Below, one piece after another: positions 55,073 to 64,000 of a stretch of DNA of 64,000 nt (its first letter is position 1; each line of letters starts with the position of its first letter). The stretch is from a bacterium (GTDB lineage Bacteria > UBA8248), in the NCBI GenBank assembly GCA_965202625.1, contig CBDBBI010000010.1:320001-384000 (forward strand), written 5' to 3'. The notes beneath the pieces are model-generated. The model ran no database searches. It saw nothing but the letters and a program-made list of their open reading frames with translations, and had not been told where the DNA came from. A program made the position numbers and the translations under genes.

Positions 55073-55315
55073 TTATCCGCCTACAATCGGCGGAAACACG
55101 CAAATCTCCGCTCCATCTGGTATCAGGGCGGATTTTTTCGCATGTCGCCCATCCAGCAAGACGATATAGGCCTCCTCATGAGGTATTTCAAAGAGATCAA
55201 GCACGTCACACACCCTTGTGGTATCCGGCAGCGCAATTTCGGCCACGCCGTTTGCATCCTGCTCAGGGGGCATTTTCTTCGAAAAATCGGCAAACAGCTT
55301 GAGGCGGATTTTCAC
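55073..55315 (-). CDS. MoaD/ThiS family ubiquitin-like sulfur carrier
   Basis: 80 aa beta-grasp pattern ending FPPIVGG; GTG start overlaps larC stop (GTGA). Confidence 0.92.
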   Translation of the reverse strand: MKIRLKLFADFSKKMPPEQDANGVAEIALPDTTRVCDVLDLFEIPHEEAYIVLLDGRHAKKSALIPDGAEICVFPPIVGG

Positions 55316-56544
55316 GACCGACTCCCTTGCGTTTCTCTGGCGCGTGAGGCGGCTGCTTCCATCACTTGCTTGAGGGGAACGCCGTTTTCTTCCGCCAATC
55401 GCTTGCAGTCTTCATACTCCGGCGCGAGATTAATGAGTTTGCCCTCAAACGTTCCTTTTTTGACGCGTACTTGACCCCACGGAAGCGTGACGTTCATCCA
55501 TTGTCGCTCGGCTATGGAGCGATGCATCGTGCGGTGGCGAACGCCGAGCGTTGACGTCTCTTGAAACACGAACCGGGTGAGCGCTTCTTTTTTAGACACG
55601 GGACTCAGGATGGTGAACAATTGCGCGGGCCTTCCCTTTTTGCCTACAATGGGGGTGGAAAACGCGTCAAGCGCGCCCGCCTTTAATGCGCCTTTTATGA
55701 GATAGGGAAAAAACTCTGGACTCATGTCATCAATGTTGGTTTCGAGCACGGCGATGATGGCGGGAGGATGGTTGTCGTTGCGGCTCGGTTGGCTCTCCCC
55801 CAAAAGAGCGCGAACGACGTTGGGCATGTTTTTCTGGTCTTTCTCGCCCGCCCCATAGCCTACTTTTGTTATTTTCATTTCAGGGATAGGTCCGAAAGAT
55901 TCCGCGCTCTCGCTCAACAGTAAAGCACCTGTGGGCGTCAGTACCTCGCCCTTAAGACCGTTGTCCATCACGGGAACGCCTTCAAGCAGCTTCGCGGTGG
56001 CGGGAGCGGGAATGGGCATCCGCCCGTGCGCGCATTCTACGTATCCGCGCCCTACCGGCAGCGGGGACGACACGACCCGTTCGATTCCCAACATGTGGAG
56101 ACCCAAAAAATAGCCCGTTATGTCAATGATGGAATCAACCGCGCCGACCTCGTGGAAATGAACGGATTCGATGTCAACGCCGTGGATTCTGGCCTCCACC
56201 ACCCCGAGGCGATGGAACGCGGAGACGGCGCGATTTTTAGGGACGTTGGGAATGGATGCGCTTTCGAGAATTTCTCTAATGCGTGCGTAGGAGCGCCCAT
56301 GTGGAGTGGTGGAATGCATCCTCCCGTGGTGTTGATACTGCGTTTTTTTTGTGAGGGTCACGTCGAATTTTTGAGACGTAACGTTTTGTTTAACAAGTCT
56401 TCTTGTAGAGATTGCATAATCCGCGATCGAGAGTTTTCTCAATTCGCCTTCAAGTGCGGAGAAATCAAGGCCGACATCAAGCAAAGCACCCAGGAGCATG
56501 TCGCCGGCAGCGCCCGCGAAGCAGTCAAAATAGATCGTTTTCAC
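55312..56544 (-). CDS. larC: Nickel pincer cofactor biosynthesis protein LarC (nickel insertase)
   Basis: YFDCFAGAAGDMLLGAL, VHFHEVGAVDSIID, LTPTGA, LETNIDD, KKGRP, APEYEDC; start GTG 56544. Confidence 0.96.
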   Translation of the reverse strand: MKTIYFDCFAGAAGDMLLGALLDVGLDFSALEGELRKLSIADYAISTRRLVKQNVTSQKFDVTLTKKTQYQHHGRMHSTTPHGRSYARIREILESASIPNVPKNRAVSAFHRLGVVEARIHGVDIESVHFHEVGAVDSIIDITGYFLGLHMLGIERVVSSPLPVGRGYVECAHGRMPIPAPATAKLLEGVPVMDNGLKGEVLTPTGALLLSESAESFGPIPEMKITKVGYGAGEKDQKNMPNVVRALLGESQPSRNDNHPPAIIAVLETNIDDMSPEFFPYLIKGALKAGALDAFSTPIVGKKGRPAQLFTILSPVSKKEALTRFVFQETSTLGVRHRTMHRSIAERQWMNVTLPWGQVRVKKGTFEGKLINLAPEYEDCKRLAEENGVPLKQVMEAAASRARETQGSRS

Positions 56545-57299
56545 GAAGCGGTCGTTTGCTTGTTGATGAGGTGACCTTGGCAAGCCGCTCCAAAGCCGTT
56601 GTCGATGTTCACTACGCTGAGTCCAGAGGCGCAGGAGTTTAGCATCGCGAACAGTGCTGTCATCCCACCTAGGTTGGCACCATAGCCTATCGACGTGGGC
56701 ACCGCGATGACGGGACAAGCCACGAGACCGGCGACTACGGAGGGGAGAGCGCCCTCCATGCCCGCCACTGCGATGATGACGTTGGCGTTGCACAGGGTTT
56801 TCATTTCGGCGAGGAGGCGGTGCAGGCCCGCCACCCCCACATCATAGATGCGCCGCACTTGCGATCCCAAAATTCGCGCCGTCACGGCCGCTTCTTCAGC
56901 CACGGGGAGATCCGACGTGCCAGCGCAAAGCACCGTGAGACAGCCAATGGGAGCAGGCGGTTTTTTTGATGGTATTTCTACGATGCGCGCTATTTCGTGG
57001 TGATTCGCATGGGGGGATAATTCTAGCAGGGCCTCGGCGTGCTCCGCTTTCGCGTGCGTGAGAAAAACTGTTTGCTCTTTTGCCAGCAAACTTTTGGCGA
57101 TTTCAACAACCTGCTCTTTGGTTTTTCCAGTCCCGAAAACGACCTCGGGAAACCCGTTTCTCAGAGCGCGGTGATGGTCCACCCGCGTGTGGCCCAGATT
57201 TTCGAACGGCAACTCTCGAAGGCGTGCGAGGGCACCGTCCGGAGCGAGTCGGCCTTCTCTCACCCGCTCAAGGAGTTCGAGTATCAGGTCAGGGTTCAT
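56541..57299 (-). CDS. larB: Nickel pincer cofactor biosynthesis protein LarB
   Basis: DHHR..R.GFPEVVFG.GK, AGTSDLPVAEEA, DVGVAGLHRL, AGMEGALPS, NIDNGFGA. Confidence 0.97.
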   Translation of the reverse strand: MNPDLILELLERVREGRLAPDGALARLRELPFENLGHTRVDHHRALRNGFPEVVFGTGKTKEQVVEIAKSLLAKEQTVFLTHAKAEHAEALLELSPHANHHEIARIVEIPSKKPPAPIGCLTVLCAGTSDLPVAEEAAVTARILGSQVRRIYDVGVAGLHRLLAEMKTLCNANVIIAVAGMEGALPSVVAGLVACPVIAVPTSIGYGANLGGMTALFAMLNSCASGLSVVNIDNGFGAACQGHLINKQTTAS

Positions 57300-62764: not shown

Positions 62765-63285
62765 CTATTTTGGATATCGTCCCCAGCCTGCGATATGGCT
62801 CCTCAGGTAGTAAATTTGTCCCATGTGAGAGAGATGGTCGCCGAAGTATCGGCCCAATGCCAAGCCAATCTTGATGCGCTCTGCGCCGGCGAAATCGGTT
62901 TTTCCCTCATCGAGGTCCGCCGCGCGTAATTCCAATAGGCAGGCGAGCGTTTTCTCGCGTAGGTACTCAAAGTAGCCCCGCAAATTTGTTGACTGTGAGT
63001 GCTAAGACCTGCTCGAGCGTGTCGCCCATGCCGTCTCGGTTAGGCTCTGGCGCCATGACGAAGCGCTCGTGCCATCTCGCCGCTATCCAAATCTGCGAGG
63101 TTTCGCTGATAAATGAGAATGTTCTGTCCTCAAAGCGTTTCATATGTCAGATGAGCCAGCCCATGGTGTTGTCGTTTGTCCGGGTTGAATCGTGAAGTCC
63201 GTGCGTCCCTGACGTCTTCCACCGCTTCTCGAAGCCTTATGCCATAGACGTTCAGGCGTTGGGAAATGAGTGTGGGGGCGTCCAT
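62765..63285 (-). pseudogene. DinB-family protein, disrupted
   Basis: ATG 63285; NTMGWLI*H (TGA at 63147-63149 where Trp is expected); C-terminal DHLSHMGQIYYLR; two frameshifts. Confidence 0.8.
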
Positions 63286-63362: not shown

Positions 63363-63998
63363 CTAGATCGCTGTGCTAGCGTGAGCGGTGAATATGTTGT
63401 GCTCCATTTTGGGCTTGCCCTCGAACGCAGGGTCCTCGTTCACCATCTTGGCCAGATATTCATCGACGTGCTCGGCGTTTGACCAAGTGCATTTGTAGGC
63501 CACTTTCTCGTCTTTGCCGATCAGCCAGACGGTGTTCGGAAGGTCTCCGAGCATGGCGTGGACCTTTTGATCCATCTCATCGACCAGGACGTTGGTTTTC
63601 ATTTTTTTGATATAGACTAACTCTTTGGCATAGATCAGCTTATGCTCATAGGATTCATGATTTCTGATCTCGGGGAATCCACGCTCGCCCGCGTGAGGTT
63701 CCCTGACGTAGAGATTGAATACGACGACATCGCGCTCCGCGTATTTTTCCTGCATTTTTTCATAAAACGGCACCTGCCGCCGGTAGGGAGGTCACGTAAT
63801 GGCACCCGTGGTGACCACCATGTATTTTTTGCCCAAATAATCCCCCATACAGTGGAGGTTGCCGTGAATGTCCTTGAGAGCGAAATGGGGAAAAGTACTG
63901 CCCGGAGGAAGAAGGTCTGGAAATTTGCCGTAGAAACTTTTCACCCGCTTACTCGTGACGAGTTTGATAGTTTTCCAAAGGTTCAGATATTGCCAGGA
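63363..63998 (-). CDS. Iodothyronine deiodinase-like selenoprotein (5' end outside window; UGA=Sec at 63794-63792)
   Basis: Frame open from window edge through PGSTFPHFALKD...MVVTTGAIT-UGA-PPYRRQV into the listed ORF with LYVREPH; matches deiodinase FGSCTUPPF / YIEEAH layout. Confidence 0.85.
63766..63794 (-). promoter_or_regulatory. Bacterial SECIS-like element
   Basis: UGA-CCUCCCUACC-GGCGGC-AGGU-GCCGUU: hairpin 10 nt after UGA with G-containing apical loop, similar to E. coli fdhF GCAGGUCUGC. Confidence 0.75.
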
Positions 63999-64000
63999 CC

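Follow-up and report, generated by a model that had tools for sequence, protein, structure and literature searches.

A probable deiodinase-family selenoprotein of the phylum Nitrospinota, split by gene callers at an internal UGA codon

The gene and its reading frame

The window analysed here is a stretch of 64,000 nucleotides of a bacterial genome (G000:C10:320001-384000). Its last part is occupied by two small open reading frames on the minus strand, 63363..63773 and 63792..63998, which are the only two pieces of the gene that the ORF list holds. The initial annotation, which named the first of the two, described a single frame that is open from the window edge apart from one TGA, and inspection of the minus strand confirms this. 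In the frame 63998..63363, the sole in-frame stop before the end is the TGA at 63794-63792, which stands in the context ...VVTTGAIT-TGA-PPYRRQVPFYE..., and the long frame terminates at a TAG (63365-63363).

The window edge cuts the gene. Nineteen further codons lead to an ATG whose position corresponds to 64055 (G000:C10:384055); it is 55 bases outside the window and has a Shine-Dalgarno sequence, AAGGAG, 9 nt to its 5' side. A TGA stop is found 35 codons 5' of this ATG. The whole product is 230 residues long, and the internal TGA is its codon 88. The features of the locus are the following.

63363..64000 (cut by the window edge), minus strand: probable deiodinase-family selenoprotein gene of 230 codons and a stop; supported by the frame, the start, the Shine-Dalgarno sequence, PF00837, full-length matches throughout the phylum and dN/dS
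63792..63794, minus strand: UGA codon, putative selenocysteine (Sec) residue 88, in T-U-P-P-Y after strand 78-84 and at the start of helix 89-104; a Cys column in homologues
63766..63781, minus strand: SECIS-like hairpin with a 6-bp stem and a 4-nt loop; supported by pairing, covariation and low synonymous variation
63363..63773, minus strand: the 136-residue ORF as called, the C-terminal 59% of the protein, with an artificial GTG start inside the hairpin
63792..63998, minus strand: open-ended N-terminal ORF piece, from the ORF list

The two small ORFs at the window end are very probably one mis-split gene. The same kind of product fills the databases: 35 of the 36 relatives returned by a word-indexed search are C-terminal fragments of 127-137 amino acids, which are called 'hypothetical protein' wherever a source gives names. 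The annotation error corrected here recurs throughout the phylum.

Conservation of the UGA codon and selection on the two halves

The read-through protein was used to search 51 genomes of the phylum, which is Nitrospinota going by the source names of the nearest database matches. Strong homologues (best E 3.3e-42 or lower) are present in 48 of these genomes. The remaining three are G013, which is 90% complete and gave no match, G011, which is 67% complete and has a best E of 2.3e-5, and G008, which is 99% complete and has a best E of 1.5e-5. An in-frame TGA is found in 108 of the 109 matches at E <= 1.4e-35, as counted by hand; a second stop accompanies the TGA in three of these 108. The sole strong match that has no TGA aligns to residues 1-87 only and ends 6 bases from the end of its contig. 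Some of the TGA-bearing matches are paralogues, with identities as low as 37%. The genome under study has a paralogue of its own at C10:982684-983298, which contains one TGA and scores 66.8 bits with PF00837.

According to the selenocysteine reading put forward in the initial annotation, homologues would have Cys or Sec at the column of the UGA. An exhaustive library search returned 899 matches at E <= 0.001, and the residues at this column were counted in the listed matches of 180-400 amino acids (n=113), with shorter fragments and longer multidomain proteins dropped. A Cys stands at this position in 101 of these 113 distant homologues; the others have Ser (5), Gly (2), Thr (2), Asn (1), Asp (1) or a gap (1), and Trp is found in none of the homologues within this length range. 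The search also turned up N-terminal fragments whose last residue is exactly 87, as well as C-terminal ones that start at about residue 95. Gene callers would be expected to produce such fragments from other family members that contain a UGA.

The similarity reaches upstream of the UGA, a point on which the reading of a single gene depends. Residues 1-87 align in every orthologue, and the dN/dS ratio of codons 1-87 is 0.05-0.19 in 10 orthologue pairs, dS being estimable in 4 of the 10 and saturated in the other 6. For codons 89-230, the ratio is 0.05-0.16 in comparison with ten orthologues. These values indicate purifying selection on both halves of the gene, before and after the TGA. Since dN/dS is low on both sides, both halves are translated in the same frame.

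The SECIS-like hairpin

A spacer of 10 nt (63791-63782) separates the TGA from the hairpin GGCGGC-AGGU-GCCGUU (63781-63766); both the hairpin and its distance had been described correctly in the initial annotation. The stem is formed by GGCGGC and GCCGUU, and the small apical loop, AGGU, contains a G. The hairpin covers codons 92-97 (R-R-Q-V-P-F), and the GTG that was called as the start of the 136-residue ORF falls inside it. The stretch that forms the hairpin also codes for a conserved R-R-Q-V/L-P motif, and part of the nucleotide conservation is therefore at the level of the protein.

When the single sequence is folded, the minimum free energy is -11.2 kcal/mol with z = +0.94, and 168 of 200 shuffled sequences are at least as stable. 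The hairpin is thus not unusually stable alone, and its support comes from the comparison across genomes. When 50 distinct segments of 60 nt, taken from orthologues and paralogues, are aligned without gaps, the six proposed pairs form in 91.7% of the cells, and three of the six have changes on both sides. Pair 21:34 is GU in 31 sequences, GC in 11 and CG in 7; pair 22:33 is CG in 38 and AU in 5; pair 24:31 is GC in 45 and AU in 1. In pair 22:33, an Arg codon changes from CGG to AGG and a Pro codon from CCG to CCU; both substitutions are synonymous, and they compensate each other. Neither the covariation score nor the count of doubly changed cells is reached in any of 500 shuffles. The synonymous entropy of codons 93-96 is 0 in 29 distinct orthologues, the mean of the gene being 0.73, and the six-codon window that starts at codon 91 has the second-lowest synonymous variation of 218 windows. 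The location proposed for the SECIS element, directly 3' of the UGA, agrees with a hairpin that is kept with compensatory changes in the 50 sequences.

Sliding the proposed pairs by +1 gives a covariation score of 0.201, compared to 0.212 observed, and after a slide of -3, 82% of the cells still pair because of the GGC repeat. RNAalifold recovers only three of the six pairs, probably because a 5-nt loop in several of the paralogues shifts the register. A scan of positions 63600-64000 against Rfam at E <= 10 gave no SECIS family and two chance lncRNA rows; Rfam may hold no general bacterial SECIS model.

Selenocysteine machinery of the genome

All four components of selenocysteine insertion that the initial annotation had listed, selA, selB, selC and selD, are found in the genome. 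A single tRNA-SeC with the anticodon tca was located by ARAGORN at C10:1674549-1674645. The matches to selA (495 bits), to selB (361 bits), which directly adjoins selA, and to selD (333 bits) are all over their curated cut-offs. The selD gene has one in-frame TGA of its own, followed by a similar hairpin, which has a GGA loop and whose stem begins 12 nt after the UGA. TGA also serves as an ordinary stop in this genome, an example being the one upstream of the deiodinase-like gene.

Family assignment and structure

The initial annotation had proposed that the protein is related to iodothyronine deiodinases, and it passes the Pfam model of that family. T4_deiodinase (PF00837) is the top-scoring Pfam model, with 36.4 bits against a cut-off of 27, which is a modest margin; Redoxin scores 33.3 bits, and AhpC-TSA scores 31.7 bits against a cut-off of 26. 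In a six-frame search of the genome, PF00837 gives 30.7 bits for the same gene, and none of 14 control genomes has a match to this model. The NF038285 profile, 'deiodinase_rel', scores 56.5 bits against a cut-off of 250. This match is partial, spanning residues 34-170 of the window-truncated protein and only positions 180-324 of the 347 profile positions. The catalytic domain of deiodinase_rel is matched in part, and the gene represents a different subfamily.

Among solved structures, mouse Dio2 is the closest relative by sequence (9h48, E 1.6e-4). In this alignment, the TGA column coincides with the Sec-to-Cys residue of Dio2, and Y-V-R-E-P-H of the gene coincides with Y-I-D-E-A-H. The likeness to the vertebrate motifs T-U-P-P-F/Y and Y-x-x-E-x-H, which had been noticed by eye, is thus borne out. 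It had also been stated that the Cys two residues before Sec in the vertebrate enzymes is replaced by Ile. This does not hold for Dio2 in 9h48, which has Ala there, and it is correct only for isoforms that have Cys at this position; such deiodinase isoforms presumably exist.

A model of the protein was built with AlphaFold2 from a 126-row alignment (pLDDT 96.0, pTM 0.92). Residue 88 sits in it between strand 78-84 and helix 89-104, which is the classical position of the active site in the thioredoxin fold. The N-terminal 45 or so residues form three confident helices and carry a conserved P-P-G-P-x-x-G-x-W-S motif. The 136-residue piece alone would be without the active site and without the first beta strands of the fold. 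No transmembrane segment is detected in the protein, the maximum hydropathy over 19 residues being 0.57.

In the structural comparison with VIA-align, the top rows are Dio2 (9h48; Z 17.4, rmsd 2.8, 161 residues aligned) and Dio3 (4tr3; Z 17.3, 164 residues aligned). Chains of the ResA, DsbE and Bcp type trail these two by less than one Z unit, and Dio2 and Dio3 align the most residues. The Foldseek E-value puts ResA-like chains first. A deiodinase-type fold, with a thioredoxin core, a peroxiredoxin-like module and the Dio insertion, is a possible assignment. The sequence identity to Dio2 and Dio3 is 18-23%.

The proton relay of Dio2 consists of Thr129, Tyr157, Glu160, His162, His182 and Ser127 (PMC11592359), and these residues map, in the same order, to T87, Y116, E119, H121, H133 and A85 through the alignment with 9h48. 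T87, U88, P89, Y116, E119 and H121 are each at least 90% conserved in the 126 sequences, and H133 is present in all 32 Nitrospinota rows. The position three residues before the Sec, that of Ser127 in Dio2, is Ala in 30 of the 32 Nitrospinota rows and Ser in 72 of the 94 distant rows, most of them Cys forms. Throughout the 32 Nitrospinota sequences, position -7 is L, I, V or F (Val in the window gene), and position +3 after the Sec is Y, F, T or S. Thr154 takes the place of the distal Cys of Dio2 in the alignment, and the other two cysteines of the protein, Cys69 and Cys189, are not conserved. Judged from the alignment, the protein has no conserved resolving Cys. A Pro173-Asn174 pair that hardly varies in the bacterial family replaces Phe224, the residue that gates the substrate in Dio2. 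Between the relay His residues there are 11 residues here and 19 in Dio2, in the numbering of PMC11592359.

Distribution, gene neighbours and habitat

A quick maximum-likelihood tree was calculated for the 126 sequences. Its root is arbitrary, and its 'distant' rows are unsplit proteins, so that Sec forms of other phyla are absent from it. The 32 Nitrospinota sequences lie on one side of a branch with an SH-aLRT of 97 and form three starred sub-clades, with 21, 9 and 2 rows, the window gene belonging to the one with 21. The three paralogue clades have diverged to 37-47% identity and have retained the TGA.

The neighbours of the gene in the window are a luciferase-like monooxygenase, a DEAD-box helicase and a small DinB-like gene, and they are retained within the genus, in 19-22 of 29 loci. 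The paralogue stands next to a GNAT gene and a glycosyltransferase gene. No hint of a pathway is given by the neighbours at the window locus, at the loci of the genus or at the locus of the paralogue.

Contigs in four marine metatranscriptome libraries, which come from one study, match the gene at 99-100%. The organism is regarded as marine because contigs that are 100% identical occur in these libraries. The TGA is bridged without letter differences by two of the contigs, X1 record 3 (63714-63973) and X4 record 10 (63752-63955). Contigs from RNA libraries do not prove transcription, and these serve as a hint only.

Reading of the UGA codon and function of the protein

The gene is very probably a real selenoprotein of the deiodinase family PF00837, with Sec at residue 88, that has been split by gene callers, and its internal UGA almost certainly encodes selenocysteine. 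Those checks and refuting conditions of the initial annotation that a computer can run all turned out in its favour. A genuine stop at the UGA, which would leave two small genes or a dead gene and a hairpin without a role, is extremely improbable. It would be in keeping with the splitting of the gene everywhere by gene callers, 35 of the 36 matches being the fragments of 127-137 residues, and with a hairpin that alone is not significantly stable. The TGA, however, falls on the column in which the family has its catalytic Cys, and it is present in 108 of the 109 strong matches, across three paralogue clades at 37-47% identity. Decay would leave neither one stop at one column nor a dN/dS of about 0.1 on both sides of it. 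The downstream piece of 136 residues would moreover have neither the active site nor the first beta strands, and the genome has the complete Sec machinery. The presence of a dedicated tRNA-Sec, selA, selB and selD also argues against decoding of the UGA as Trp or Cys by a variant code or by near-cognate reading, which is very unlikely. TGA is an ordinary stop of the genome, the 113 distant homologues have no Trp at the column, and a conserved hairpin is found at SECIS distance. In favour of such decoding, Cys is inserted at the UGA of some selenoproteins when selenium is short.

Given a selenocysteine at residue 88, the protein could be a true reductive dehalogenase, one of the two functions suggested in the initial annotation, although this is rather unlikely. 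Sec88 would then form a halogen bond to an iodinated or brominated phenolic compound and take X+, the relay would protonate the ring carbon, and thiols would reduce the Se-X. The deiodinase relay (Thr, Tyr-x-x-Glu-x-His and a second His) is conserved, and to our knowledge proteins of the ResA or peroxiredoxin (Prx) type in general have not been reported to share it. The active site, T-U-P-P-Y, resembles the vertebrate T-U-P-P-F and has neither a CxxC nor the Pro/Thr pattern of Prx, and the structural matches with the best coverage are Dio2 and Dio3. The organism is marine, and organohalogens are common in the marine habitat. The relay and the T-U-P-P-Y site thus speak for deiodinase-like chemistry. 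A specialised dehalogenase is opposed by the changes in the thyronine-binding elements (Pro-Asn in place of the gating Phe, and 11 instead of 19 residues between the relay His residues), by the predicted cytoplasmic location of the protein, by neighbours that give no sign of halogen metabolism, and by the view of the authors of PMC1088965, who expect a different, redox function. The parts of PMC1088965, PMC9312934 and PMC13188914 that were consulted describe no bacterial member of the family with demonstrated dehalogenase activity.

Proposed mechanism and substrate

By combining the parts that are present in the gene and in the genome, it is possible to outline how the selenoprotein might be made and how it might work. 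The hairpin 10 nt after the UGA would recruit SelB with Sec-tRNA(Sec), and the UGA would then be read as Sec and not as a stop. The product is predicted to be a soluble, cytoplasmic enzyme with a thioredoxin fold. Its selenolate would be located at the N-terminus of helix alpha-1, backed by Thr87 and by a hydrogen-bond relay of Tyr116-Glu119-His121-His133, as has been described for Dio2 and Dio3.

The catalytic cycle is likely to involve one selenol. An electrophilic atom in the substrate would be attacked by Sec88, with the Thr/Tyr/Glu/His/His relay supplying a proton to the leaving group. An external thiol, possibly thioredoxin, glutaredoxin or a small thiol, would then reduce the Se-OH, Se-X or Se-S intermediate so formed, since the protein has no conserved second Cys. 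As for the substrate, an oxidant of the peroxide, sulfenate or disulfide type is tentatively favoured, its chance being somewhat short of even. A halogenated aromatic compound is a considerably less probable candidate, and something else could account for the rest.

Relation to known systems

Deiodinase-like selenoproteins in bacteria are not new, as the initial annotation rightly pointed out. Zhang, Fomenko & Gladyshev reported members with a bacterial SECIS element, together with Cys homologues, from the Sargasso Sea in 2005 (PMC1088965) and considered a general redox role to be likelier for the family. Two reviews, of 2022 and 2026, list the family under PF00837 with the redox motif UxxC (PMC9312934, PMC13188914). 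Like these prokaryotic proteins, the gene has a UGA at the catalytic position, Cys homologues, and a downstream hairpin with a G in a small loop. It differs from the motif listed in the reviews, having U-P-P-Y/F with no Cys at +3. The conserved N-terminal extension of about 45 residues also sets this clade apart from the prokaryotic deiodinase-like family, going by those parts of the published descriptions that were consulted. The gene thus belongs to a family first published in 2005. It does not represent a novel type of system and would not surprise a selenoprotein specialist.

With the vertebrate enzymes Dio1-3, the protein shares the thioredoxin fold, probably with a Prx-like N-terminal module, the T-U-P-P-aromatic motif, and Tyr-x-x-Glu-x-His with a second His. 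The bacterial gene differs from them in having no membrane anchor and in having its SECIS element inside the coding region instead of the 3' UTR. The protein has Ala in place of Ser at position -3, Thr154 in place of the distal Cys, Pro-Asn in place of the Phe224-Glu of Dio2, and a shorter loop between the relay His residues. One would not expect its substrate to be a thyroid hormone. The 1-Cys peroxiredoxins and the ResA/TlpA proteins have the same fold (Z 16-16.7), and the AhpC-TSA and Redoxin models were also passed. The protein resembles a 1-Cys Prx in having a single redox-active residue without a resolving partner. It differs from the ResA/TlpA and Prx proteins in the absence of a CxxC, of the Prx Pro at position -7 and of Thr or Ser at position -3.

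Genomes that are named Nitrospinota and filed as UBA8248 have 48-54 selenoproteins according to the 2026 BSepDB paper. The word 'deiodinase' is absent from the main text of this paper, and the clade may already be catalogued in the BSepDB tables.

The conserved, multi-copy redox enzyme implies that marine nitrite oxidizers need selenium for it, which bears on their trace-element requirements. Its soluble, anchor-free bacterial relatives could serve for the study of deiodinase-type chemistry. It may further be speculated, with a low probability, that each genome of the phylum to which the main marine nitrite oxidizers belong has between one and at least three unannotated cytoplasmic Sec-deiodinase paralogues, all selenium-dependent and of one clade, which are true dehalogenases or iodine- or bromine-handling enzymes acting on small halogenated phenolics. 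If this were true, selenium supply and marine halogen chemistry would be linked to the nitrite oxidizers, and there would be a simple and soluble bacterial protein on which to model deiodinase catalysis.

The searched passages of the Nitrospina gracilis genome paper contain no word starting with 'seleno', and superoxide dismutase and catalase are reported as absent in that paper. An argument for a peroxidase role that is based on the defence against reactive oxygen species was considered and found to be weak. No catalase match is found in the genome studied here (completeness 99.69%), but an Fe/Mn superoxide dismutase is present, with a match of 126 bits.

Other selenoprotein genes of the genome

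The deiodinase-family selenoprotein gene of the window has a counterpart elsewhere on the same contig, and the contig also carries a selD gene with an in-frame TGA. Both lie outside the window:

G000:C10:982684-983298 (L067:4670-5308), minus strand: second deiodinase-family selenoprotein gene
G000:C10:1611050-1612009 (L012), minus strand: selD, with an in-frame TGA

The product of the paralogue is 212 residues long, is 41% identical to the window selenoprotein and matches PF00837 with a score of 66.8 bits. Its single in-frame TGA is found in the context G-A-I-T-U-P-P-F, and the hairpin is present here as well, with C-G where the window gene has G-U. A gene for a GNAT acetyltransferase adjoins this paralogue. 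In a related genome, G039, two members of the family are arranged in tandem, about 160 nt apart and with a TGA in each (L048, G039:C1:2278983-2280450), and the same arrangement is found on contig C50 of another, G038.

The TGA of selD is in the context G-G-U-G-S-K, and 12 nt beyond it comes a stem capped by a GGA loop. These two features of the sequence indicate that the selenophosphate synthetase of this genome is itself another selenoprotein.

The residue three before the catalytic position

Residue 85 is Ala in 30 of the 32 Sec forms of the phylum in alignment A2, whereas Ser occupies this column in 72 of the 94 distant forms, most of which are Cys forms. The Ser may be dispensable in the presence of Sec, but as the Sec forms make one clade, this contrast has the weight of a single event.

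Other genes of the window and oxidative-stress enzymes

window 62765-63143, minus strand: small DinB-like gene, broken into two frames, which follows the selenoprotein gene at a distance of 220 nt
window 55312-57299, minus strand: neighboring ORFs with matches to PF01969 (nickel-insertion protein family, 455 bits) and PF00731 (AIR carboxylase, 55 bits)

The two frames of the DinB-like gene overlap and encode 58 and 72 residues; in all four congeneric loci that were translated the gene is a single frame of about 129 residues, and both pieces have contiguous matches in 19 of the 29 orthologous loci. The gene is frameshifted in this genome, either by mutation or by an assembly error.

No match to catalase (PF00199) was found in the whole genome, which is 99.69% complete; an Fe/Mn superoxide dismutase is encoded at C10:1546365-1546649 (126 bits). 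The PF01969 and PF00731 pair is reminiscent of LarC and LarB, the genes for the nickel-pincer cofactor.
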